A stretch of 15,846 bases of DNA, from the NCBI GenBank assembly GCA_038893995.1, contig JAWAQK010000053.1, forward strand, positions 1 through 15,846, written 5' to 3'. Both the position numbers and the translations under genes were made by a program. Origin of the DNA: Candidatus Thorarchaeota archaeon (GTDB lineage: Archaea; Asgardarchaeota; Thorarchaeia; Thorarchaeales; Thorarchaeaceae). The notes beneath the pieces are model-generated. The model saw only the letters and a list, made by a program, of their open reading frames with translations, had not been told where the DNA came from and ran no database searches. Every line of letters starts with the position of its first letter. Positions within the stretch are counted from its first letter, which is position 1. This document shows positions 1-14,817 of the stretch, piece by piece.

Positions 1-3000
1 GCAATCTCGTAGTACTGCTTGGTGAAGTATATGGCAATGTCCCGAGGCGCCAGACCTGCATGTACAAACGTGCTGTTCAGCACGAACGAGTATGTGCCAT
101 CCCCGTTGTCGATGAAGGTCCCGACGACAGACTCGACGCTGTACTCTCCGAGTGCGCCAGGAACAGGCACATCATTGTGCGCGTCATAGAACATGACGGT
201 GAACGTGACATTGCGACCGTAGTATACACTGACCAACGGAGAACCAACGAAGACAATTCGAGTTGGAACTCGTTTCACCTGTATGAATGCCTGATTGCTG
301 GCCGGTCGGTATCCGTCCTTGCCAGAATACACTAGAATCGTGTAGTACCTCGTCTCAAGGAGACCTGTGGGTACGAGTGCGCGGTAGTAGCCATCTCCCA
401 GTTCACTGAACTGTCCAGTGACGTTTCCGACACTGAAGGAGATAGTCGCTCCGAGGACTGGCAGGTTCAGGTCTGTGTTGTTCAGGTACACCGTTACGAC
501 GGCGTAATCGCCCCAGATGACGATGCTCGAAATGTCGTGCACAACGAGATTGGTTTCGATGATCTTGATCTCCAGTACCAAGACAACTGTGACGGTCCTA
601 TAGTTGGCTGACGAGGCCTGTATCATTATCGAGTGGCTACCCACGGGAACGTTCTCGACGAGAATATAGCCAACGTATCTAGAGATAGAGGCATTCCAGT
701 AGAGCTTTCCTGTGCCACCGACCCAACTGAAGGTCAATACACCCTGAGAGATAGTATCGTTGGTCGACTCTGCCACGTAGTCAGCCATGACCATCACTGT
801 CTGGCCGTTCACTGCTGCTGGAGACGCCAGAGCGGCAGAGAGGACCGACGACTGCTTGAGTACCCGCACGAGAAAGCCCTTGATCAGGAGCTCATGATTG
901 ATCTTCGAGACACGTACCGACAGTATGAGGTCTCCCGCTTCAAATGCTCCAGTGTCAATTGTACAGTTGTAGAGACCGCCCCCCAGCTCTTGTACAGTCA
1001 AGTTGACATTGCCGAAGACCGCTAGGACCGTAGCACCGATTATCGGTAGACCACTCCTGCGGTCCGTCACGTTCAGAGTCACATGCAGACGATCGCCAAA
1101 TGTGGGCGTTGAGGGGAGGAACGTAGCCTGGACGCTCAGCGGGATTGCAGCAATCTGAACCTCGACATCCACAGACCTGTTGACATAGAGGTACTTCGAG
1201 GCACTTATCGAGAAACCATAGGAGGTCGCGTTCAGGCCAGCAGTGTCAATCGTCAGCCGATAGATACCGCCTCCTACCTCTGCCATCGAGGCACCGCCCC
1301 CATACAACGCGTTCCAGTTGGTCTGGACCTGAGCACCCTCTATGCCAATGCCGTTTGAAATCACAGAGAATGAGATGTTGATACTTATGATGTCTCCAAG
1401 GTAATAGACTGCGCCTGGGATGAGAATCAGTCTGAGGTCCGTAGCGGCAGGATTGACCTGGATGTAGAACACGATGCCGGAGCGGTTCTGGTAGAACGGT
1501 GATCCGGACCATCTTAGCTCCGCAACAAACTCGTAACGACCAAGTCCGTACTGGAGAGAGTTCGTATCGACTATCAGTGTGTACGTACCGTCGCCATTGT
1601 CCACAGTCCAGCTGACAATCGAGCTGTCGTTCGTGCAGACAAGGCTCACTGATGCACCTCGTATGCCAGTACCACGGAGGTAGTCATAGTATCCGAGCTT
1701 GGCAGTGGCGTTGTAGTAGTAGTCTGCAGCAGGCGCAGAGACGACGCTTGCAAAGGTGAACCTGCTGATGGTAGTCACATCCGTGCCAGCCGTTCCGTTA
1801 GAGTAGTACGGCGCAGTATTTCCCCAGACGATCATTATGATGAGGGGGTGGTCACTCACGAGCCTCGTGGACAGCAGGGTCGAATTCATCCTGATGACAT
1901 AGCCCGATTCGCTCTTCACAAGGCTGAAATCAGAGGGCCCCAGCAACAGACCCGGACCGTGGTAGATGTATAGCATGGACTTGCCGATCGTCAGGGAGTT
2001 TCCGTTGAGAGCATCTAACACGGTGATCTCCAGTGAGATGTTGTCAAGGTAGGGAGTGTTCAATGGCGACCTGACGACTGTGACTGTCAGAGGTCTGCGG
2101 ATAACCACCGCGACCACGTCACGATATCTTGTCTGGTAGTAGGGAACTCCTGACCTACCTGCCGTGATGTGTATCACGTATTCGCCGAAATTGCCCAGGG
2201 CCGTAGTCTCTATTCGTATCTCATACCTCCCATTTCCGAGATAATAGACATAATAGTTCGAGCCCAGTACAAGCGGCGAAGTGGAGTTATCACACTCGGC
2301 CGTGACCGATGCCCCCGCAATCCCCGCACCCGTCGAATCGTCAATGTATACCACTGTGATATTTGCAAGGGAGAGGTACGGTGCAGAGTCGGGCACCAGT
2401 GCGGTCAGCTGGGTCGCCCGAGTTGTTATCGTGATGTAGAATATGTCCACGGCGTCTGTACAGTATCGTGTTCCAGAATAGTGGATTGTCACGTTGATCA
2501 TGAAGACGCCTGTCGAACCGAATGCAGATGTGGCGAGTGTCAGACGGTAAGTACCGTCGAGGTTATCAACCACGGAGTATTGCCCTGCAAGCCAGGCATC
2601 GAGAGTCAAAGTAGACCCAGCAATTCCACTCACCGGCGAATCGTCCAAGTCACTGTAAGTGAACACTACTACGATGCTGTCAAGATACTGTGCTGGTGAG
2701 TATGCGCCATGGGTGAGGCTCGTCTGGCGCTCACGGACTACTACCGATATGGGGATGCCTGTCTGGTTCCTGTAGTAGGGCTCTCCGTACCAGAGAATAC
2801 TGACATGAAACACACGAGTACCTGGCGGCCAGGAAGCACTGTTTATCTGGATGATGATCACCCCGCCCAATGACGGAGAGGCAAACACCGTGTAAGAGAT
2901 CGGTTCCGTGAGATAGACCGATATCTTTCCCACTTGTGGAATGACCGGTAGTCCTGTGTATACATCTCTGAAGACAATCGAGACATTGAACATCGTGTCA

Positions 3001-4661
3001 TAGGGAATAACAGGGATAGCCTGAATGTCCACGACTGTGTTGCGGCTCGCAGTATAGACTGTGATCGTGATAGTCCTGTTTTCGTAGAGTGGTAGTTGTC
3101 CCTTGGTCCAGTTGAACATTATCTTGAACTGACAGGCACCCAAACCCTCCAGGAGCGACGTATTGAATCGGAACAGGTACCTACCGGGAGTAGACATCGG
3201 GTCCAGTTCCGCGATGATCATCATGCTCTGAGTGATCGTCTGCCCAGGCGTCAGCACTACCACATAGATGTGCACATGCCCTGGGTAGGGGCCCGTAGTG
3301 TTGGCGATTCCAGATGCGGCCTCTACGTCAAGGTAGACAAGTACAAAGCTGACGTTCTCACCATAGGGCGTGACTGGGGGATTCTGATCGACATAGAGAT
3401 ACGTGGGCGCACCAGTGACTCGCACCGATGTGACGATCTGGCGATCATAATACTTCTCAGTCGGACCAGTCCACTCCACGTAGATCGTCAAGTCCTTGGT
3501 ACCGATGGACCCCCACTGGTCAGCGGGCATGATCACCAGATACTCCCCGGGAGCACTCCCATTGAACACAGAGAAGATCACAGTTGCCAGACCAGGAGAC
3601 TCTACATAGATGCGCACATAGTAACCAACTGTACTGCCGTTCTCAATTCCGACGCCTGCATCAACATCGTAGTACACCACGGTGAATCTGATGTCTGCCG
3701 TGTAGGACGTGGGAAGTATCGAGTTCAGCAGATAGAACGAGGTGAGGTGGGTCCTCAGGACCACTGTCAGATAGAATGTGTGATTCTGCGCACCATACCT
3801 GCTCACGCTGACCATCACAACGTAGGAACCTAGGACATCGGTGTCGAGGGACAGGATACTGACATTGTAGACACCGGGTGTCGACGTCTCCCGCACGGAG
3901 TAGGAGCCATGTGAGCCAGTCCAGTTCAACTGGAACGCGCTGGCAGCGCCCGATATGGGGACTGAATGGTCCGTGTCGGTGTAGGTGACAGTGAACCATG
4001 ATTCGTAACCGACGGGCACTGAGACCAGACTCGTTGAGGGGATGGCAGACGTATACAGCTCGCGAACCCGCACCGACAGTATGATGGTACGTGACTCGAC
4101 AAAGCTCTTCTTGGCAGTGATGCTCACCTTGTAGTATCCAAGGGGCACATTGTCGGTCTCCAGTTCAAGAACGTACTGACCAGGCTGACCGACGACGGGA
4201 GTGACCTGATAGTTATCGAGAGACCAGTTACATGAGATCATGGCTCCTGTGATTCCCTGACCAAGCTGGTCCTTGAACTGAAGGCGGAGTTCGGCGTCGT
4301 ATCCCCTCGGAATCGCCACTCCTGGAGCATCTGGAGACATGAGTTCAGACTGGAGAATCACGTTTAGGGTAAATACGCGATATATGCTGTCATAGTACGA
4401 CTTTGACCAGCTGAGTGAAACCTGGAATCCGCCCCCAGAGGACAATACGGATGTGTCGAGAGGCACTGCATATTCGCCCGTGCCTAGGTCGCTGACAACT
4501 CCTGAACCGCCAGCCCATGAATACGTCATCACGCCACCAGGTAGGAATGAGCCCGTGTCCGAATCACTTACCCTGAGTTGAAGTAGCACGACAGACCGAT
4601 ATGTCGTGTTGTAGGACCACTGTCCCTCAACGGGATATCGCACGGTCATGCTGGTGGAATG
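1..4661 (-). repeat. Array of at least 15 divergent ~100-120 aa Ig-like beta-sandwich repeats within the giant protein
   Basis: Recurring pattern: T-x-L ... PY(G/L/D) ... hydrophobic strand-Y-x-D ... (P/G)I-x-GA ... D/E-x-G-x-G-x-Y-x-h-x-h-(D/N)-T ... (K/P)-x-Y. Examples are DNGDGTY at 90-110 and 1581-1601 and DNLDGTY at 2547-2567. The repetition is at protein level; I saw no long exact DNA repeats. The Ig fold is inferred from the pattern. Confidence 0.8.
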
Positions 4662-7379
4662 GTGCACTGCAAAGGCCCTGCGGAAATAGCCCACATTCCT
4701 GACAGATTCGCTGGAGGCCGCATCCACAGCAAAGGCCTGCACCTCCCACGAGCCTACTGATGCATTGAGAGCACCAAGAGTGACAGTTGTGGTGGTGGCA
4801 ATTCCAGAGGGGTCAACGGTAGCCTGAAGTGTCTTCCACACAGCCCCAGCGGGGTCGTACACGACGAAGACCACATTCCGAGATGCATATTCTGGGGACA
4901 GTACTGCCCTGAATCTGGTGACACTGTTTGCACGGAATACTGCTGTCTTCGTCCACGATGAACTCCCCGAGTTCCAGACCAGCACGCTAGATATGATGTT
5001 GGGCGAACTACCCTTGATATACCAGAACCCGTTCTGTGCAGTCCTAGTCACCTGGTACACTGAAACGTTCAGCGCCCCGTCTCCAGGATCACCAAGTGAC
5101 CAACCGCGAGTAAGGTTGACATAACGATATCTTGGTTCGGCCACGTAGTCTATGTCGCGATTGAGCGGAAGTGAGACGTTGAAGAAGAAGTAGTTGCCAT
5201 ATCCCCCGGGGACAGCGACGTAGTGGTTGGTCTCCCACCGAACGCGAGTGGCATTCTGCACGTAGTAGTTGTCACCCGTGGTGAAGTACTCGGTGTTATT
5301 GATCGAGGCTATATTGTGTCTCCTTGCACTCACCGTCACAGTGGCATCCATCTCGACCCAGATGGGCAGATTTGGATCTGGAGGATAGGGGGACGGGCTC
5401 CAGGAGAAGTTAGCGAATGCCAGGCCATTTGTCCAAGGCACACTAGGAACGTATGTGACCGTGCCCAGCCCGAACACTGGACTGCCGCCCTGCATCACAT
5501 TCTGGACGTTCACTCCATTCATCCTGAGGCTCAGGCTGCTGGGGGTCGCCTTGGCCTTGATGTACAGGACAATGTTGTCCAGTCGTCCCTCAGGACGTAT
5601 GTCAGGATCTCTGTACCACTCTGAGGCGGTCACACGCAGTCCTGCCATGAATGGAACATTCGGCGTGGTTATCATATTCGGGTCAACTGAGATGAGTCTC
5701 GTCGAATACCAGGTTCGAGTCAGTGGTATTGAGTCGAACTTGCGACTCCACAAGTAGCTCCCGCCTGCGTCTGGGTCTCCTATTGACGCAAATAGCTCGA
5801 AGAAACCGGTCATGTAGTTGGACCAGCCCCGGCAGTCTGCGTAGAAATCGAGAGAAAGTCCAGCCCACGTGACTTGCCCTCTGTCTACGTACAGTTGCTG
5901 CCGTACGAAGGCCTTGTCGCCAGGATTGTACCAGAATCCGTACAGTCCACTACCGGCGTCGTGCCAGTAGCCATCGATCTGGAATACCGACGAGGGGTTG
6001 CCGGTCCCGTGGCCATCGCTCAGCCAGTTGGCATCCATCCTACCGAACCCCCCTGCCTCGGCCACGTACACATTGCCAGTGGACGACACTGCGATACCTG
6101 TGCCAAATCGTATGTTGTTGTTCCCAGTGCCATCGGTACCCCACCGGCCCGAATATGTCCCTGTTGATGTGAAATACTGGACTCGATGGTTGCCAAGATC
6201 ATTCACATAGATTCTAGTACCATCAGCATTGACTGCAACACCCATGGGAGTACGGAACTGACCATTTCCACCCCCTCCATTGGCGACATATGAGCCAATG
6301 TAACTCTGGTAAGTGCCAGTACTGGAGAAGCGAATGACTCGATTGTTGCTCGAGTCCGCAACAATGACTTGCCCCTGCTGTGTACCAGCAGGAATGACTG
6401 CAATTCCGGTCGGCATCCTGAACTGGTTGGTCCCGGTACCAGAAGACCCCCACCCACCCTGCCATACACCCTGGGTATTGAAGTACTGTACCCGATCGTT
6501 GCCAGTATCCGTCACGTACAGATATCCATTGACGTTGTTATACGCAATCCCGGTGGGTGATCGAAACTCTCCATTGTCTACCCCTGAGGAACCCCACTGT
6601 CTCTGATACACGCCCTGTGAGTTGAAGACCTGAATGCGGTCATTGCCCGAGTCAACAACGTAGATCAATCCGCTCCCATCCACTGCAATCCCGGTGGGAC
6701 GATTGAACTGGCCATTACCGGTCCCGAAGCTGCCCCACTGCCGAATGAAAGATCCTGTGCTTGAGAAGACCTGAATCCTGTTGTTCTGAGTGTCAGCGAC
6801 ATAGATGTTGCCTGAGCTGTCAAAGGCAATGCCCCACGGGTCAATAAACTGACCAGCGCTGCTACCCCTAGACCCCCACATGCCGACGTGGGTACCTGTC
6901 GACGTGAAATAGTGGATCCGATTGTTCCCGTTGAACCAGCCCTCGCGGTACGATGTGCCGAACGACCAGACCGAGTCGTCCGTGAACTGGTAGTTGGTCA
7001 GCCAGGTCCTGTTCTCTGTTATGCTAGATATGCTCGCGTTCACTCTGTACCCCTCCCAGTCGTCGCCTAGCGGTACAGAGAGGCTCGCCGTGGTGAGGCT
7101 CCCTGGTGAGTACTTCATCCGCACACTCTGAAACAGGTCGGTCCTCGTACCGTACTCAGATGCGTAGAGGGGAGCGCCTGTCCCGGCAACACTGGTCGGG
7201 ACTGAGGAGATCTCGTACTTCAGGAGCACTTCATCTGGCGCAACCTCGATGAAGTCGCCATTGCCCAGGTCGACCAGAGTGGGTGACCCTGTATACCCAA
7301 CTGGGCCAGAATCAAGAGATGAGACAATGATCATGGGAACTAGAATCAGGATAGCGAGCAGAGCTGTACTGAATCTCAC
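1..7379 (-). CDS. Giant secreted/cell-surface protein (>2459 aa, 3'-truncated by the window): signal peptide, NHL beta-propeller, jelly-roll-like domain, >=15 Ig-like repeats
   Basis: Manual minus-strand translation gives one stop-free frame from GTG 7379 to the window edge. It begins MRFSTALLAILILVPMIIVSS (basic residue plus hydrophobic core). A GGAGG Shine-Dalgarno-like motif lies 9 nt upstream. Alternative starts are TTG 7385 and GTG 7415; the upstream in-frame TGA is at 7431-7433. It contains clear NHL repeats, beta-rich repeats and many N-x-S/T sequons. It has no stop in the window, which explains its absence from the ORF track. Confidence 0.95.
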   Translation of the reverse strand, partial: MRFSTALLAILILVPMIIVSSLDSGPVGYTGSPTLVDLGNGDFIEVAPDEVLLKYEISSVPTSVAGTGAPLYASEYGTRTDLFQSVRMKYSPGSLTTASLSVPLGDDWEGYRVNASISSITENRTWLTNYQFTDDSVWSFGTSYREGWFNGNNRIHYFTSTGTHVGMWGSRGSSAGQFIDPWGIAFDSSGNIYVADTQNNRIQVFSSTGSFIRQWGSFGTGNGQFNRPTGIAVDGSGLIYVVDSGNDRIQVFNSQGVYQRQWGSSGVDNGEFRSPTGIAYNNVNGYLYVTDTGNDRVQYFNTQGVWQGGWGSSGTGTNQFRMPTGIAVIPAGTQQGQVIVADSSNNRVIRFSSTGTYQSYIGSYVANGGGGNGQFRTPMGVAVNADGTRIYVNDLGNHRVQYFTSTGTYSGRWGTDGTGNNNIRFGTGIAVSSTGNVYVAEAGGFGRMDANWLSDGHGTGNPSSVFQIDGYWHDAGSGLYGFWYNPGDKAFVRQQLYVDRGQVTWAGLSLDFYADCRGWSNYMTGFFELFASIGDPDAGGSYLWSRKFDSIPLTRTWYSTRLISVDPNMITTPNVPFMAGLRVTASEWYRDPDIRPEGRLDNIVLYIKAKATPSSLSLRMNGVNVQNVMQGGSPVFGLGTVTYVPSVPWTNGLAFANFSWSPSPYPPDPNLPIWVEMDATVTVSARRHNIASINNTEYFTTGDNYYVQNATRVRWETNHYVAVPGGYGNYFFFNVSLPLNRDIDYVAEPRYRYVNLTRGWSLGDPGDGALNVSVYQVTRTAQNGFWYIKGSSPNIISSVLVWNSGSSSWTKTAVFRANSVTRFRAVLSPEYASRNVVFVVYDPAGAVWKTLQATVDPSGIATTTTVTLGALNASVGSWEVQAFAVDAASSESVRNVGYFRRAFAVHHSTSMTVRYPVEGQWSYNTTYRSVVLLQLRVSDSDTGSFLPGGVMTYSWAGGSGVVSDLGTGEYAVPLDTSVLSSGGGFQVSLSWSKSYYDSIYRVFTLNVILQSELMSPDAPGVAIPRGYDAELRLQFKDQLGQGITGAMISCNWSLDNYQVTPVVGQPGQYVLELETDNVPLGYYKVSITAKKSFVESRTIILSVRVRELYTSAIPSTSLVSVPVGYESWFTVTYTDTDHSVPISGAASAFQLNWTGSHGSYSVRETSTPGVYNVSILSLDTDVLGSYVVMVSVSRYGAQNHTFYLTVVLRTHLTSFYLLNSILPTSYTADIRFTVVYYDVDAGVGIENGSTVGYYVRIYVESPGLATVIFSVFNGSAPGEYLVIMPADQWGSIGTKDLTIYVEWTGPTEKYYDRQIVTSVRVTGAPTYLYVDQNPPVTPYGENVSFVLVYLDVEAASGIANTTGPYPGHVHIYVVVLTPGQTITQSMMIIAELDPMSTPGRYLFRFNTSLLEGLGACQFKIMFNWTKGQLPLYENRTITITVYTASRNTVVDIQAIPVIPYDTMFNVSIVFRDVYTGLPVIPQVGKISVYLTEPISYTVFASPSLGGVIIIQINSASWPPGTRVFHVSILWYGEPYYRNQTGIPISVVVRERQTSLTHGAYSPAQYLDSIVVVFTYSDLDDSPVSGIAGSTLTLDAWLAGQYSVVDNLDGTYRLTLATSAFGSTGVFMINVTIHYSGTRYCTDAVDIFYITITTRATQLTALVPDSAPYLSLANITVVYIDDSTGAGIAGASVTAECDNSTSPLVLGSNYYVYYLGNGRYEIRIETTALGNFGEYVIHITAGRSGVPYYQTRYRDVVAVVIRRPLTVTVVRSPLNTPYLDNISLEITVLDALNGNSLTIGKSMLYIYHGPGLLLGPSDFSLVKSESGYVIRMNSTLLSTRLVSDHPLIIMIVWGNTAPYYSNGTAGTDVTTISRFTFASVVSAPAADYYYNATAKLGYYDYLRGTGIRGASVSLVCTNDSSIVSWTVDNGDGTYTLIVDTNSLQYGLGRYEFVAELRWSGSPFYQNRSGIVFYIQVNPAATDLRLILIPGAVYYLGDIISINISFSVISNGIGIEGAQVQTNWNALYGGGASMAEVGGGIYRLTIDTAGLNATSYGFSISASKYLYVNRSVDVEVQIAAIPLSVQATFLPSTPTFGDRLHVTLNVTDRRSGLPIIGATVLAVFGNVNLTVQELGGGLYNCTIDTGAFEAGDLILSVRVSKINHELLIKGFLVRVLKQSSVLSAALASPAAVNGQTVMVMADYVAESTNDTISQGVLTFSWVGGTGKLYWNASISRYVGYILVENVPVGSHSIMIQASSANYRTVTVVLVLEIKIIETNLVVHDISSIVIWGDYAVVTVYLNNTDLNLPVLGATISFSVGNVTGQFSELGDGYYRALVPTGLLETRYYTILVYSGKDGYRPASNQAFIQVKRVPTRIVFVGSPLVSVYYGRNVTFTVMFYDAHNDVPVPGALGEYSVESVVGTFIDNGDGTYSFVLNSTFVHAGLAPRDIAIYFTKQYYEI
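6054..6929 (-). repeat. Six NHL repeats (six-bladed beta-propeller) within the giant protein, approx. aa 151-442
   Basis: Six G(I/V)A motifs: DPWGIAF, RPTGIAV, SPTGIAY, MPTGIAV, TPMGVAV, FGTGIAV. Six N-x-R-(I/V) motifs: NNRIHYF, NNRIQVF, NDRIQVF, NDRVQYF, NNRVIRF, NHRVQYF. They are joined by WGSxGxGxGQF-type segments, matching the NHL consensus. Confidence 0.95.
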
Positions 7380-7446
7380 CGGCAACTTCCTCCACTGCGT
7401 GTGCGGAGTACCCACGATGGGCTGTTCACATCATTCGGGATAGGGA

Positions 7447-7456
7447 GTAATAAAGC
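7447..7456 (-). promoter_or_regulatory. Putative archaeal TATA box for the giant surface-protein gene
   Basis: The minus strand reads GCTTTATTAC, an AT-rich element in GC-rich context, about 35 nt above GTG 7415 and 70 nt above GTG 7379. Confidence 0.45.
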
Positions 7457-7757: not shown

Positions 7758-9920
7758 TCAGGTACCAGAGGGATGCCTGGACCTGGCAAACACCACAACA
7801 ACAGCAGCTGCACTCACTATTGTCCCCACGGTCAACGCCGGCACCACCCACGAGCCCCACGGAGACCTGTTGTCGAGCACAATCGACCAGTCTGTCTCGG
7901 CCATATTGAGGGCCATGTCAAGTGCAACAACCCGGACTGCCACATAGGAGACCGAAGTCGGATCGTAGAGACGTGGGATCTGTACGGTCCAGTTTGAGCC
8001 AGTTGTCTGACACATGAAGACGTTCTCAGTACCGTCGATGTCAACCACCACTGTCACATTCTCGATGCCAGACATGTCGTCGCGGACATAGGCCCACACG
8101 GTGAGTGAGGCTGTGTCATTATCAGTTTCAGTAGACATGCCCCACGACACTATCTCGGGAGCACGATCATCATATATGCAGTACATCATGGAGCTAGTCA
8201 GGGCCCACGCCCTCTTCAGGGCATCGAAGCATCCGGTCCAATTCATGTTACAATACATTGAATCGGCCACTGCAAATGCCTCAAGTGCCTTCTGTCGCAG
8301 GAACTCGGCCCTGGGGGTCATGACGCCAGATATTGATGCGTACACTCTCTGATACCGGCCCATGTACTCGGCCCACATCTGGTCGAGGTACGTACTCTGC
8401 ACGAAGTTGTCGTCGTAGACCGAGGTGCCGTTGTGGAAGGCATGGTAGACCATCGGGCTTGAGCAGAAGTCACCAACGTAGTGACCGTAGGTCCATGTGT
8501 GCATGATTCCTATTGCGTGCATGGTCTCGTGAAGTTGAACGAGAGAAACACCACTCTTTGGTGTGACGCCGTCATCCCGGTAGTATCGTTCCCACGACTT
8601 CCATATGACTGTCTGTCCGCCTCCTCCCAGTCCAGTGAAGGTACCTCCGTAGACGTACATCACCATGTTCTTCTTCACAAAGACCACGCCAAAGACATTG
8701 ATGTCAGTCGATGACACATCGACGTGGCGGGACCTCATCTGCATGTAGATTGCCTCGAACATTCCCAGACCGTCGACTACAGTCTTGCCACCAACGACCT
8801 GAGCATAATCCCAGAAGAGTTCCTCCCAGTCAGGGTGGTCGCGGATGTCTGAGAACTCCACATCGACATTCCATTTCACAAATGGCATGAGCTTCCGAAG
8901 GTAATCGCGAAGGAGGTCCTCATTCGTGATCCATCGCAGGCTGTCGATCGAGATACCATCCTCAACATCCATGCAGAAGACCAGAGTCTTGAGGTTACCT
9001 CTACTCACGTATGCAGCTGGTTCGTGCTGATAGGGAAACATCACCATGCCCAGAGGGTCATGGAGGTAGTTTCCAAGGTAAGTCGAGAGAGTCTCACGCC
9101 CGCCCTGCGTGTGCAGATCGAGGAGACTGGAATACGCATCTAGGTCGTACACCGTGTGAGGCGGTACCTCCGTGTCCTCCCACCATATTGAGGCCCATCT
9201 CAGGTACCACTGATTCGCCGAGGGATCGAGGACGTAGATGTTTCCACGTTTGCCCCCAAAGCCGGGATAGTGAAACACCACATTGGGGTTGAGCGAGTTA
9301 TCCCACTCCAACCTGAACCAGTCCTGTCGTTGACCGCTGTCCGGGTCAACGGGGTTGTAGTCAAACCAGTGTTCCCATCCAGGGCTATCAAACTCTGAGA
9401 AGTTCAACAAGTACACGGTGTAACCCGGAGTGGGAGCAGGCACAGCAGGATTGTCGAGGAGCCATGCCTCAATCGCGTCAGCATCGATGGACATGCCGGC
9501 ACGAGGGTAGAAGATCCTCTGTGGCTCAGACGGGTGCTCCCTCTGGTACAAGAGAGCGTCCACGTCTAGACGGGTGCCGATGTCGACTCCCGATCTTGAG
9601 TTTGCGAGGGCTACTCCTGTCAGTGCACCGGCATAGCTGCCATTCGCATAGACGACGTTGTAGTGTATCAGATACTTAATGGTGAGATCCTCCAAGTAAT
9701 ACTGCCTCTGGTCAGGCAGACAGGCTAGCAGGACGGACTCCACAATCACCGAGGGATCATAGTTCACAAGGACAATGTTGACGTACCAGTCTCTCGTCAG
9801 TGTCCCAGGAAGCATGGAGGGACTAGACGACACTTCAGCCTCAGCATGGCAGACAGTGTCGCTGGCGACGGGGACCATCAGTAGGCATAGAACAGACGCC
9901 AGTAGTAGCACGCAGCGCAT
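7758..9920 (-). CDS. Secreted, C-terminally membrane-anchored zinc metallopeptidase (metzincin-type), about 720 aa
   Basis: HETMHAIGIMH at 8499-8531 matches HExxHxxGxxH and is followed by SSPMVY (Met-turn candidate, Met at 8451-8453). ATG 9920 gives a signal peptide (MRCVLLLASVLCLLMVPVAS) and is preferred to the track start at 9995, which lies in AT-rich promoter-like DNA. The C-terminus has an Ig-like segment (DDRAPEI...DDMSGIENVTV...VVALDMALN), a TM helix (WVVPALTVGTIVSAAAVVVVFA) and a basic RSR tail. Confidence 0.9.
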   Translation of the reverse strand: MRCVLLLASVLCLLMVPVASDTVCHAEAEVSSSPSMLPGTLTRDWYVNIVLVNYDPSVIVESVLLACLPDQRQYYLEDLTIKYLIHYNVVYANGSYAGALTGVALANSRSGVDIGTRLDVDALLYQREHPSEPQRIFYPRAGMSIDADAIEAWLLDNPAVPAPTPGYTVYLLNFSEFDSPGWEHWFDYNPVDPDSGQRQDWFRLEWDNSLNPNVVFHYPGFGGKRGNIYVLDPSANQWYLRWASIWWEDTEVPPHTVYDLDAYSSLLDLHTQGGRETLSTYLGNYLHDPLGMVMFPYQHEPAAYVSRGNLKTLVFCMDVEDGISIDSLRWITNEDLLRDYLRKLMPFVKWNVDVEFSDIRDHPDWEELFWDYAQVVGGKTVVDGLGMFEAIYMQMRSRHVDVSSTDINVFGVVFVKKNMVMYVYGGTFTGLGGGGQTVIWKSWERYYRDDGVTPKSGVSLVQLHETMHAIGIMHTWTYGHYVGDFCSSPMVYHAFHNGTSVYDDNFVQSTYLDQMWAEYMGRYQRVYASISGVMTPRAEFLRQKALEAFAVADSMYCNMNWTGCFDALKRAWALTSSMMYCIYDDRAPEIVSWGMSTETDNDTASLTVWAYVRDDMSGIENVTVVVDIDGTENVFMCQTTGSNWTVQIPRLYDPTSVSYVAVRVVALDMALNMAETDWSIVLDNRSPWGSWVVPALTVGTIVSAAAVVVVFARSRHPSGT

Positions 9921-9942
9921 GGGCGAGGGCCCAACAGCGGCC

Positions 9943-10015
9943 CGTATTAATATTGCTGAACTCGCAGGGTACTTCATAACAATGTATATTAACAATCATT
10001 ACAATATCTTAACAT
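9943..10015. promoter_or_regulatory. AT-rich promoter region of the peptidase gene with repeated ACAAT/ATTGT motifs
   Basis: TATA-like AATATTAATA on the minus strand about 25-30 nt above ATG 9920, which fits a leaderless transcript. ACAAT occurs at 9979-9983, 9992-9996 and 10001-10005. Confidence 0.55.
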
Positions 10016-10298: not shown

Positions 10299-11168
10299 AT
10301 GTGCGCGGAGAGCACGACCTGTACATGTGAAGTGCCCGACACCAGTTCAGACATGCTCACGCAGTGGTGGAATGATAGGACGGTTCGTATGTTCGTCCTG
10401 TTGATGGCGCCAGTCGGAGTAGTCGATTCAATAACCACTGTCATTCTCGTCAACGAGTATGGCGTCCATATAGAGTATAACCCGATCGTGAGATGGCTGC
10501 TGACGACTCCGCTCTGGCCAGTCTGGTTCGCACTCAATGCGATCGTGTTTGCAGTATTCATCATGGCTGCTGGATCGTACTACATCAGTACGAGGACGAG
10601 TGGCAACTACCCTGCGGATCTTGTCGCGCTTGTCATAGCAATACGGACTGCGCTCACAACAGGAAATCTACTCTTTGCGCTGGGTAGTGGGATGGCCCCT
10701 GCTGTATCGCTGGGGATGGGACTGGTGATATTCAAGCTCGTGAGGGACTCCTTCGGCGGGCGGACAATGCCGACGCCACGGACGATCATCCTTGGCCTGA
10801 AAATGAAATACATGCGCCTCAACCACTACCTGATAGTGAGGCAATTACGGAGAAAGATCCCACGCACGCGCCAGAAGCAATTATCGGAGACAGTCAGGTT
10901 GACCCGTTCCCTCTCTCTCTCGTCGCTGGTACGACGAATGGTCTACGCAACACTCGCCGCGGCCGTGTTCCTTGCCGCGCCGCTGTTCGCATGGGTAATC
11001 GGTCAGCTTCCAGTCCTGAGCAGCCAGAGCTGGCGGCACGAGGGGCCGTTCTTCTGGACACACGAGGCATCCGCCATCTTCCTTTCGGGATTCGCACTTG
11101 TCTCTCTGATCGTCGCAATATCTGTCTACCTCGTCCTGAAGGCCGTAGAGGTAGAGGAGGCATTCTGA
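10299..11168 (+). CDS. Multi-pass membrane protein, DUF5658-like N-terminal domain plus a C-terminal two-TM module
   Basis: 289-aa ORF with several hydrophobic helices. VDSITT...YG...EYNPIVRWLL resembles the D-x-x-TT...G...E-x-NP signature I recall for DUF5658. An Arg/Lys-rich linker precedes two further TM helices. The start is uncertain (ATG 10299 or 10353). Confidence 0.75.
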   Translation: MCAESTTCTCEVPDTSSDMLTQWWNDRTVRMFVLLMAPVGVVDSITTVILVNEYGVHIEYNPIVRWLLTTPLWPVWFALNAIVFAVFIMAAGSYYISTRTSGNYPADLVALVIAIRTALTTGNLLFALGSGMAPAVSLGMGLVIFKLVRDSFGGRTMPTPRTIILGLKMKYMRLNHYLIVRQLRRKIPRTRQKQLSETVRLTRSLSLSSLVRRMVYATLAAAVFLAAPLFAWVIGQLPVLSSQSWRHEGPFFWTHEASAIFLSGFALVSLIVAISVYLVLKAVEVEEAF

Positions 11169-11956: not shown

Positions 11957-12219
11957 GTTGTTCTGTGGTCAACCTACTGTACATGACTGGATGATATCAA
12001 CTCCACCATACTGCCCAGAGGGCCTTGGATGTCCGTGCCTGACGATGTTGGCCGTACGGACCACGGTCAATCCCGGTACGGACACCTGAATATGACCTGA
12101 GAGGCATGCCAGACTGACATTGTCAATCAGGGCAACTCGCAGTACCATCATCATGCGCCGTGGAAGATCGACGACGCGACTCCATCTTAGATTTAAGCAG
12201 ATGTGTACACACAAGGGGT

Positions 12220-14817
12220 ATGCGTCGAGTCGTGGGTGGCAACTTGGTCAGAGTCGTCCTCGCATCTGTTGGAACAGCACTTCTTGTGGCAACGATAATG
12301 ATGCCACTTGGTCCACTTGGGGGCGGACTCGCTGTCCTCTCTCCAGTGGGCGGAATGTTTGACACTGGGCGTTCTGTGAGGGCCCCTGTACCATCAATCG
12401 TGTCTCTGGACTGTCTCAGTTCCGACGTAGAGGTGCTTGTTGACGAGTATGGGATACCTCATATCTACGCGCACTCACTTGAGGACGCATATGCGGTCCT
12501 TGGCTACTTCCATGCCCGAGACCGCCTATTCCAGATGTTCGCACAGAACAGATATGCGGCAGGTCGCATGTGTGAGGTCACTGGGCCTCTACAGAGTTCC
12601 GTCGTCTCAGACAAGTTCTACAGGACCATTGGTCTTGCAAGAAGTGCGCAGAAGACGCTTGAATGGTACGAGGAAAATGCGGAGTCCAATCCAAATGTTG
12701 CACTTGCCCTGCGAGTCATCGATGCAGAGGTCGCCGGAGTCAACGCCTACATTGACTCACTCACCACGACAGACCTTCCACTCGAGTTCAAGATCCTGGG
12801 GATATGGCCCGAACACTGGACAAGACATGACGTATTCCTCTGGTCAAAGATGATGAGCTGGAGTCTCTCAGGCAGTACGATTGATCTGTACAGGTACTGG
12901 CTCAGATCGTCCATAGACAACGAGTCTGTGTATCGGACGATCATGGCAGATCTTGCAACACCGTATTCTGTGCCGATAGTCACCGAACAGACCAACCTGA
13001 GTCTATCGGAGTACCCGAACGCGCCGGGAGGCTACCCTGCCGTGTTCGAGCCTCCGGCAAATGGTACGTACGCCGACAACTCTGCCGACATCAGGCTCGA
13101 CCATCTAAAGATCCTGCTGGACACTCTGAGCAGTGTGAGGACGCCCCTGAGTCCAATGGGCATCGTGGGCTCAAACAACTGGGCCGTGAGTGGATCGAGA
13201 ACGTCAACAGGCAAACCGATGCTGGCGAACGACCCCCATCTACAGCTTCAGGCCCCGTCACTATGGTACGAGGCACATATAGTCGTGCCAGGAGTAGTGA
13301 ATATCATTGGCGTCACGCTACCGGGACTACCTGGGATATTGCTGGGCCACAACGAACACACTGCGTGGGGATTTACGAACGTGGGAGCTGACGTGGTGGA
13401 CTTCTTTGTGGAACAGGTTGATCCCAACAATCAGAGCAGATACCTATACAACAGTGAATACAGGGAGTTCAGGGAGATCGACGAGTCAATAGCCTGCAGG
13501 GATGGCAGTAGGATACCGTTCACTGTCCGAGAGTCTGTACACGGTCCAATCATCGATGGTATACTCGATACAAGCGGGATCATCAACCTGGCAATGAACT
13601 GGACGGGCAATGGAGTCACTCACGAGATCCTCTCTCTGACGATGATCAACATGATGCAGGATATTGATGACTACTTTGAGGCGGTGTACTGGTGGGACTG
13701 CCCAGCCCAGAACATAATATACGCAGACGACAGCGGAAACATAGCGATAACCGTCGCAGGAAGGTATCCAGTCAGGGCGGGATATTCCGGAGAGGTACCA
13801 GTAGTAGCAACAGACGACTCCACTGGCATGGTGGGAAGCATTCCCTACGCGTTTATCCCGAGGTCTGTGAACCCATCGCAGGGATATCTACAGTCAGCGA
13901 ATCAGAACCCGGTCGACCCGACCGACTACGGATATACAATTCTGGGACCCTTCGATGATGGCTACAGGGGTCGAAGGATAGACAGCCTTCTTGCGGCAGA
14001 CTCGAACGTGACTGTACTGGACATGATGAGGTATCAGGCGGACTCGCTAGAGGTTCGTGCCCAGAGGCTAGTGCCACTGGTGATAGAGGCGTGGGATGCC
14101 TCCGGAGAGAGTAACACCACAGTCGCCAATGCTGTCGAACTCCTTCGGGACTGGAACTATGTGATGGACACGGACACAGCGGCGCCAACACTGTGGATGT
14201 TCCTGCTGAAGTCCATTCATGTAGAGGTGTTTGACGAGGCTCCGGACATCGACCCGAGTCTTCTCACATCGAGGACATCGGTGCTGGAATGGATCCTGCA
14301 CGAGAACGCAACATATCTCATAGACGATCATAGGACTGGTGACAGAGTGGAAACTCGTGGAGAGATACTGGTCAGAGCGCTGTACAGGGCCCTGGAGATG
14401 ATTGTCGCATATACCGGCACCGCTGACCCAACAGGATGGTCATATGGTAACTATCATCAGATACATCTGAACCACGTCGCGTTCGGACCCGCAGTCCGGA
14501 TAGTAGGTGGGCCTCACAGGGGACAGGCCACTCTGAATGCAGCTCCCGGCTGGAACGTGGGACACGGACCCTCGTGGAGGATGGTCATCGACCTGTCCAA
14601 CATTGCTGAGTCGTACGGAGTCTATCCCGGGGGTCAGAGTGGTAGCTTCCTGAGTCCCCACTGGGAGGACCTGTTCAGACTCTGGTATGCGTTCGATCAG
14701 GAGAGCCAGACGTATGGCTATGCGAACATGTACTTCTACGGTACTGCTGCGATGTTCCGAGCAGCCGATAGCGACAGAATAGAGTACTCTGTCACCTTTA
14801 CGGCGGGAGGTTCCTGA
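12220..14817 (+). CDS. Penicillin acylase family protein (Ntn hydrolase, peptidase S45), N-terminal signal/anchor, about 865 aa
   Basis: Alpha-chain motifs DEYGIPHIYA and GYFHARDRLFQM. Beta-chain start GS|NNWAVSGSRTSTGKPMLANDPHL with the nucleophile Ser codon at 13171-13173. Further family motifs: PSLWYEAH, PAQNIIYAD, SANQ, GPSWRMVIDL and PGGQSG...SPHW. ATG 12220 is preferred because a hydrophobic segment follows it and TTTAAG lies about 25 nt upstream. Confidence 0.95.
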   Translation: MRRVVGGNLVRVVLASVGTALLVATIMMPLGPLGGGLAVLSPVGGMFDTGRSVRAPVPSIVSLDCLSSDVEVLVDEYGIPHIYAHSLEDAYAVLGYFHARDRLFQMFAQNRYAAGRMCEVTGPLQSSVVSDKFYRTIGLARSAQKTLEWYEENAESNPNVALALRVIDAEVAGVNAYIDSLTTTDLPLEFKILGIWPEHWTRHDVFLWSKMMSWSLSGSTIDLYRYWLRSSIDNESVYRTIMADLATPYSVPIVTEQTNLSLSEYPNAPGGYPAVFEPPANGTYADNSADIRLDHLKILLDTLSSVRTPLSPMGIVGSNNWAVSGSRTSTGKPMLANDPHLQLQAPSLWYEAHIVVPGVVNIIGVTLPGLPGILLGHNEHTAWGFTNVGADVVDFFVEQVDPNNQSRYLYNSEYREFREIDESIACRDGSRIPFTVRESVHGPIIDGILDTSGIINLAMNWTGNGVTHEILSLTMINMMQDIDDYFEAVYWWDCPAQNIIYADDSGNIAITVAGRYPVRAGYSGEVPVVATDDSTGMVGSIPYAFIPRSVNPSQGYLQSANQNPVDPTDYGYTILGPFDDGYRGRRIDSLLAADSNVTVLDMMRYQADSLEVRAQRLVPLVIEAWDASGESNTTVANAVELLRDWNYVMDTDTAAPTLWMFLLKSIHVEVFDEAPDIDPSLLTSRTSVLEWILHENATYLIDDHRTGDRVETRGEILVRALYRALEMIVAYTGTADPTGWSYGNYHQIHLNHVAFGPAVRIVGGPHRGQATLNAAPGWNVGHGPSWRMVIDLSNIAESYGVYPGGQSGSFLSPHWEDLFRLWYAFDQESQTYGYANMYFYGTAAMFRAADSDRIEYSVTFTAGGS

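Follow-up and report, generated by a model that had tools for sequence, protein, structure and literature searches.

The window analysed here, a stretch of 15,846 nucleotides that makes up the whole of contig JAWAQK010000053.1 (C53) of a Candidatus Thorarchaeota archaeon, carries about 85% of a gene, termed A, for a membrane-anchored surface glycoprotein of Thorarchaeota. The gene runs off the contig end, and its remainder was located on a second contig of the same genome, C66, where it is followed directly by a gene for a paralogue, B. The combined product consists of a signal-like N-terminus, a head of beta domains into which a propeller is inserted, a stalk of 17 immunoglobulin (Ig)-like repeats, a transmembrane helix and an acidic cytoplasmic tail. 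We consider it probable that A is a binding fibre or receptor that works with B. The initial annotation of the window had called the protein Asgard-type, in keeping with an organism that is an Asgard archaeon. The DNA appears to come from a hot-spring metagenome: two hot-spring metagenome runs belonging to a single study hold 95% of the sampled words of the stretch, and no RNA run is among the listed holders.

An open reading frame listing that allows open ends places the frame of gene A on the minus strand at 3..7415, with 2,471 codons, zero stops and an open end at the contig edge; the open reading frame track misses it because a listing without open ends omits such a frame. The initial annotation had proposed an unlisted minus-strand frame of more than 2,459 residues filling nearly half of the window, and computed translation confirmed that this frame is free of stops. 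The window spans contig C53 from end to end, one of 82 contigs in a 2.33-Mb genome assembled to 91% completeness; the cut in the gene is therefore an artefact of assembly, not a biological truncation. Two GTG codons are candidate starts, at 7379 (2,459 codons in the window) and at 7415 (2,471 codons). The former, which had already been chosen in the initial annotation, is likely the better start, judging by the GGAGG and TTTATTA elements upstream of it and by a database protein, P0003, that is 99.6% identical and begins at the residue encoded by GTG 7379. Residues are numbered below in the 2,471-codon frame, in which the product of GTG 7379 starts at residue 13. The features of the gene in the window, from its upstream side to the contig end, are as follows.

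7448..7454, minus strand: TTTATTA, a putative archaeal TATA-like box about 70 nucleotides upstream of GTG 7379, read from the sequence.
7389..7393, minus strand: GGAGG, a Shine-Dalgarno-like element 9 nucleotides before GTG 7379.
3..7379, minus strand: window part of gene A, 2,459 codons from GTG 7379, without a stop, running off the contig end.
7311..7379, minus strand: signal-peptide-like N-terminus, residues 13-35 (MR, a hydrophobic core, SSLDSG), from sequence and hydropathy.
7026..7298, minus strand: N-terminal beta domain, residues ~40-130, with strands at a predicted local distance difference test score (pLDDT) >89 in an orthologue model; conserved in A and B.
6945..7025, minus strand: first strand or strands of a jelly roll like those of carbohydrate-binding modules (CBM), residues ~131-157, with a TENRTW...W motif.
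6051..6944, minus strand: NHL beta-propeller, probably with six blades, interrupting the jelly roll, residues 158-455 (Pfam NHL, DUF5128).
5556..6050, minus strand: remainder of the CBM-like jelly roll, residues 456-620, from fold matches of the orthologue model.
5016..5555, minus strand: middle beta-rich region of the head, residues 621-800, corresponding to orthologue residues 298-480, all beta at pLDDT >90.
4665..5015, minus strand: macroglobulin (MG)-like beta-sandwich, residues 801-917, corresponding to residues 480-594 of the orthologue model.
3..4664, minus strand: stalk repeats R1-R15, residues 918-2471, 97-121 residues each with short linkers, delimited by a domain-registered hidden Markov model (HMM).

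The missing end of A was traced by comparison with P0004, a full-length orthologue. Alignment with the window protein stops at residue 2445 of P0004, and a 5'-open reading frame at C66:1-1242 (413 residues) covers the extreme end of the orthologue, residues 2461-2873, at 62% identity; the assembly therefore misses about 13 residues, the number by which R15 falls short. The order of genes obtained by placing C66 after C53 (protease-like, A, B, tRNA-synthetase-like, LPG-synthase-like) is the order found on the complete contigs of relatives. By these alignments, C66:1-1242 is the end of gene A and would supply R16, R17, the transmembrane helix and the cytoplasmic tail. A model of its 413 residues (mean pLDDT 85.9) consists of two beta-sandwiches, a transmembrane helix at 199-229 and a helical tail. 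The C-terminal transmembrane anchor that the initial annotation had expected outside the window was thus found once the gene was followed past the contig edge. No Logan contig from the source runs bridges the contig end (window 1-1500), the longest reaching 2 bases past position 1. As predicted from the two parts, full-length A would comprise about 2,885 residues, or about 314 kDa before glycans.

Paralogue B, of 2,579 residues and 35% identical to A over residues 452-2442, has no propeller and ends in a transmembrane helix and tail as A does. On C66 the TGA stop of A (1240-1242) and the TTG start of B (1239) give a 4-nucleotide overlap, and the same geometry is seen in 10 of the 13 related genomes with one A-B pair. 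A and B lie in tandem in every related genome examined; one of these (contig C22) holds three to four tandem copies of the family and not two. The genes downstream of the pair are conserved, lie on the opposite strand and are of housekeeping type. Exactly 17 repeats are present in every complete A and B of 14 related genomes and in the B of this genome, and the A of this genome reaches the same figure with 15 repeats in the window and two on C66. Full-length orthologues of 2,870-2,923 residues, at 58-66% identity, occur in many genomes, and the head is present in 21 of 24. A collection of 5.8 billion proteins yielded 57 head homologues, all from Thorarchaeota or unnamed metagenome proteins and, if named at all, labelled 'hypothetical protein', '6-bladed beta-propeller' or with a generic beta-propeller name. 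No characterised full-length homologue, which according to the initial annotation would remove the novelty, turned up among these, and we found no paper describing the A/B family. When R17, the transmembrane helix and the tail of A were modelled with those of B, with alignments, the predicted contact scored 0.29 against a mark of 0.32.

Self-comparison of the region after the head revealed a period of about 100 residues. The repeats extend from R1 (918-1020) to R15 (2382-2471), which is cut about 13 residues short by the contig end, so that 14 are whole; they are joined by linkers of a few residues and are divergent, with 14-25% identity to R1, the first row of the alignment. R16 and R17 were modelled at pLDDT ~95 as tandem beta-sandwiches, the fold of R1 was taken from the model of an orthologue, and the repeats of the window are homologous to R16 and R17. 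A Foldseek search with the R16-R17 model returned at least 500 matches at E <= 0.001, those listed being almost all tandem Ig-like or FN3 domains, and the best were tandem Ig domains, titin Z1Z2, invasin, filamin and SbsC (E ~1e-7). The count and the fold agree with the initial annotation, in which at least 15 Ig-like repeats were seen to continue past the edge. Against PDB sequences the repeat profile matched FdeC (the best, E 3.6e-5), invasin and InvD, and the Pfam family Invasin_D3 reached 22.9 bits, under its cut-off of 33. These matches suggest that the repeats are related only distantly to bacterial Ig-like group 1 (the Big_1 or invasin type). A reading of the repeats as filamin repeats, raised by a D-N-G-D-G-T-Y motif, was dropped; the only match was to gelation factor, at E 0.023-0.15.

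Residues 13-31 form the sole hydrophobic stretch among the 2,471 residues of the window protein, and the same feature is present in every orthologue; of the signal peptide proposed in the initial annotation, it is this hydrophobic N-terminus that holds. The head that follows, put there at about 900 residues with an NHL propeller inside, does end near residue 917, and the propeller is recognised by Pfam NHL (PF01436) at 118.3 bits against a cut-off of 20 (E 4.8e-35), with five matched units over residues ~160-455, and by DUF5128, a family of six-bladed propellers (E 5e-14). In the sequence itself, six G-[IV]-A...D..N.R[IV] units can be counted between residues 158 and 455, together with a leading NNRIHYF strand. 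No Pfam family was found in the ~460 residues between the propeller and the stalk repeats. The head was therefore examined in the model of an A orthologue that is 58% identical in the head and lacks the propeller, built from a 30-row alignment, a choice that keeps the propeller from dominating the fold searches.

The orthologue head is all-beta, with a mean pLDDT of 88.8. Residues 104-297 of the model form a jelly roll matched by modules of families CBM16, CBM4, CBM61 and CBM22 (Z 9.5-11.9, root-mean-square deviation ~3 Å, 130-168 residues aligned); its best matches, at Z 10.4-11.9, include hyaluronan- and alginate-binding modules, MAM domains and reelin subrepeats, and the CBM matches found by Foldseek have TMt values of 0.56-0.65. 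Residues 480-594 match the MG domain of alpha-2-macroglobulin (2p9r; Z 11.0, root-mean-square deviation 2.1 Å, 92 residues) and also complement C5 and C3. The middle region, residues 621-800 of A, was barely sampled by the fold searches. Matches to the whole head were multi-domain ectodomains, among them RPTP mu and Eph receptors, all with low TM scores; the best was a Nitrosopumilus surface-layer (S-layer) protein (E 5e-8, TM only 0.12). The head is accordingly read as a CBM-like jelly roll that holds a nested NHL propeller and leads into further beta domains.

Set against paralogue B and A orthologues lacking NHL, the propeller is an insertion just after the first jelly-roll motif; B and these orthologues lack the insert at the same site. 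On a head tree calculated without the propeller columns, NHL-bearing proteins occur only inside the A clade, where two to three changes are needed to account for them. The insertion site is constant, and divergence of the insert tracks that of the flanking head (44-65% versus 47-66%). A constant site together with tracking divergence makes one old gain followed by several losses the simplest reading of these sequences. The insert has been lost in many A lineages and never occurs in B, with the rest of the protein kept; these losses, together with its absence from B, argue that the propeller cannot be the core function. Conservation is highest at the far end of the protein: identity to six orthologues is 54-64% in the head and R1-R5 (64% in the jelly roll) and mostly lower, 33-57%, in R6-R15, with a minimum at R12 (33%). 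A distal end that is the best conserved part suggests a conserved ligand or partner and not an arms race. The ectodomain, which is presumably glycosylated, holds 50 N-x-S/T sequons, compared with 25 ± 4.5 in shuffled sequences, and the tail has none.

The cytoplasmic tail is about 185 residues long, acidic (isoelectric point, pI, ~5) and helical, ends in ...GGDKD and is strongly conserved in A and B. Among the motifs retained are SVPK..R, G.IP and ...M.PSER.GF..EVI.QE.ARRA, and the final unit of the tail reads L..LR..L...G....E.E.I.EQA..LSKA...ALL..LG. An HMM of the tail matches the C66 end of gene A at E 1e-76. Within this genome the tail is present only on A, on B and on a third giant of 4,213 residues on contig C7 (C7:34016-46654, plus strand; tail HMM E 1.5e-38), whose repeats are related at ~27% identity. 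Related genomes encode 2-14 tail-bearing giants each, with open frames of up to ~6,200 residues. Among 201 genomes of the phylum, the tail was found in 42 of the 43 that belong to the same family and in the single remaining member of the order; a few other families give weak matches, and most give none. A search of 1.84 billion representative proteins gave 149 matches, in which the tail is almost always C-terminal and the proteins reach 5,543 residues; a few tail-bearing proteins carry extra copies of the last unit after the tail. By these profile searches, the tail seems nearly restricted to Asgard genomes of Thorarchaeota-like type, where it forms the C-terminus of giant proteins.

The tail has no significant Pfam match up to E 10 and none in NCBIfam. 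A tail profile gave nothing significant against PDB sequences (best Thf1, E 0.04, and RAP D3, E 0.56), and the ESM Atlas, searched by features and by structure, gave no match (TM <= 0.35 on the query). The last unit, of ~55 residues, shows sub-threshold matches to RecX_HTH1, the RecX three-helix repeat, in relatives with tandem units. Two metagenome proteins or fragments, P0152 and P0154, consist of four tandem copies of this unit (L..LR..L...G....E.E.I.QA..L......LL), which is therefore a self-standing, repeatable module. Around the C7 giant, no GTPase or longin genes were found within ~10 kb. About 6 kb upstream of it lies a gene for a protein of 876 residues (C7:25364-27994, plus strand) with a CarboxypepD_reg-like beta domain and a C-terminal EAP30/Vps36 domain of ESCRT-II type (E 1.5e-9).

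One neighbour of A in the window accompanies it in relatives.

7758..9995, minus strand: type-I membrane protein of 745 residues with HExxHxxGxxH and a Met-turn-like SSPM, upstream of A and co-oriented with it.

An HExxH protein of 720-750 residues lies directly upstream of A in nine of 14 genomes and within 9 kb in two more, and it accompanies A with or without the NHL insert. Metzincin zinc proteases are recognised by HExxHxxGxxH and a Met-turn; in seven orthologues of this neighbour the HExxHxxGxxH and SSPM motifs are invariant, and a GGGGQT loop is also present. No Pfam family passes for this protein, weak matches to M66, reprolysin and matrixin appearing in one of seven members, and its profile found nothing among PDB sequences; neither this profile nor Pfam brought out a likeness to PIG-S/Gpi17. 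The HExxH neighbour is a candidate maturase or sheddase of the giants. Elsewhere in the window, 12160-14817 on the plus strand encodes a penicillin-amidase-family protein of 885 residues (E 7e-188) with a hydrophobic N-terminal segment, which is not conserved beside the A/B locus in the relatives examined, and 10299-11168, also on the plus strand, encodes a multi-pass membrane protein of 289 residues, whose match to DUF5658 (E 6e-4) is weak and falls short of the cut-off.

As a binding fibre or receptor, A would be exported by way of its N-terminal signal peptide and held in the membrane by the single C-terminal helix encoded on C66, and the rod of 17 Ig-like domains would hold the head up to ~60-70 nm away from the cell if fully extended. 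The head would most likely bind a conserved external ligand, for example a glycan, a partner cell or a second copy of the system, and the acidic helical tail of ~185 residues would most likely dock a cytoplasmic partner. A would be made together with the NHL-less paralogue B. The higher conservation of the distal end fits such a conserved distal binding function. The initial annotation had named an adhesin or receptor; the layout on which this was based, an NHL head, an Ig-like stalk and a C-terminal transmembrane helix, is confirmed, and the role is one that we still infer from it.

Several points weigh against this proposal. About 13 residues at the join between C53 and C66 are missing from both contigs. 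For the signal peptide and its cleavage, the evidence consists of visual inspection and hydropathy. The likeness of the jelly roll to CBMs is at the level of the fold and comes from the model of an orthologue, and the Ig-like fold was modelled on R16, R17 and the R1 of an orthologue, not on the repeats of the window. Finally, an exactly fixed repeat number and a near-universal presence would also fit a structural spacer or coat.

It is indeed possible, though distinctly less probable, that A and B build a tall canopy of the S-layer or glycocalyx type, in which the rod of 17 domains is a spacer that sets a constant height and not a device for binding a ligand. Besides the invariant 17 repeats of every complete A and B and the presence of the tail in 42 of 43 family genomes and of the head in 21 of 24, such a coat would account for an ectodomain dense in sequons, and the best whole-head match is, at a TM score of only 0.12, an S-layer protein. 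A precedent exists in PySLP of Pyrobaculum arsenaticum, an S-layer protein of 292 kDa with 19 Ig domains (bioRxiv 10.64898/2026.08.21.746120). PySLP and A are alike in being archaeal type-I membrane proteins of ~290-310 kDa with a signal peptide, a long Ig-like array and a C-terminal transmembrane helix, and PySLP is the nearest published thing to A. The two were compared by layout, not by sequence, and share that layout but not the tail: PySLP has a short basic, lysine-ended tail, 14 cysteines, a crown domain and a lattice-forming core, whereas A has an acidic folded tail of ~185 residues, a CBM/NHL head, few cysteines (seven in the 2,471 residues of the window protein) and a partner gene. 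The coat is disfavoured by this long tail (pI ~5), because proteins of the PySLP type end in one that is short and highly basic. The paucity of cysteines argues in the same direction. In addition, the exposed surface of PySLP is its more divergent part, whereas the distal head is the most conserved part of A, and in cultured Asgard archaea from other lineages the surface proteins look amorphous and form no lattice (PMC9834061; 10.1101/2025.11.06.686947).

A role in substrate capture, in which the CBM-like jelly roll and the propeller bind a food polymer, or the propeller processes it, and the stalk presents them beyond the coat, we regard as unlikely. The nearest folds of the jelly roll are CBMs of glycoside hydrolases and lyases, and the NHL region gives weak matches to SGL (E 1.6e-5) and Arylesterase (E 3.4e-4), both below cut-offs, and one to ScyF at E 4e-49 that reaches 168 bits against a cut-off of 350. 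No catalytic family in Pfam or NCBIfam, however, attains its curated cut-off, and a conserved cytoplasmic tail would be unexpected for a mere substrate hook. This role is rated low above all because the propeller is dispensable in many lineages: the insert has gone from many A proteins and was never in B, and the remainder of the protein has been kept. That the frame is a chance open frame, a pseudogene or an assembly chimera, as a gene cut by a contig end and the breaking of public contigs of the source runs in the same region might suggest, is so improbable as to need no further consideration, given 2,471 codons without a stop, full-length orthologues in many genomes, colinear conservation domain by domain and conserved synteny.

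As a binding fibre or receptor, A can be set beside several known designs. The Big_1 adhesins invasin, intimin, FdeC and InvD share with it a rigid Ig-like rod and a distal binding head; they have an outer-membrane beta-barrel anchor, ~4-10 domains and a C-type-lectin-like tip, in contrast to the N-terminal head and C-terminal transmembrane helix and tail of A. Giant bacterial repeat adhesins such as the Marinomonas ice-binding adhesin (PMC4083281) have the same design of head, extender and anchor, and the extender repeats of PDB 6xi3 match the MG-like domain plus R1 (Z 11.0, 18% identity). Adhesins of the Marinomonas type, however, carry ~120 near-identical repeats, are secreted by the type-1 route and are anchored in the outer membrane, whereas A has 17 divergent repeats in constant number. 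Metazoan type-I receptors in which a jelly-roll head sits on an Ig/FN3 stalk, namely Eph receptors and RPTP mu (MAM-Ig-FN3), match the orthologue head model by Foldseek at E 2.7e-7 to 1e-6 (TM 0.15-0.25) and, like A, pass the membrane once and have a folded cytoplasmic part; A has no kinase or phosphatase domain. On the models, this likeness would be one of layout and common folds, not demonstrated homology.

In place of an S-layer, cultured members of the Asgard archaea bear complex surface proteins, which are considered responsible for their syntrophic cell-cell contacts (PMC9834061). The A/B family is a concrete and nearly universal candidate in Thorarchaeota for such contact structures: a pair of predicted glycoprotein rods of ~300 kDa and invariant length that have a lectin-like head and a folded tail hardly seen elsewhere. 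The nested head, with an NHL propeller inside a jelly roll that on the simplest reading was gained once and repeatedly lost, offers a natural experiment in modular head evolution. The ligand of the head, the pairing of A with B and the recruit of the tail are directly testable. In its most specific form, which we hold to be doubtful, the proposal would make A and B a heteromeric transmembrane receptor, in which the CBM/NHL head binds a ligand or partner cell and this event is relayed through the transmembrane helices to the Asgard-specific tail, which would recruit an intracellular partner, and in which the HExxH protein matures or sheds the ectodomains. If true, close relatives of eukaryotes would possess an adhesion-signalling system with an origin separate from that of integrins and cadherins.

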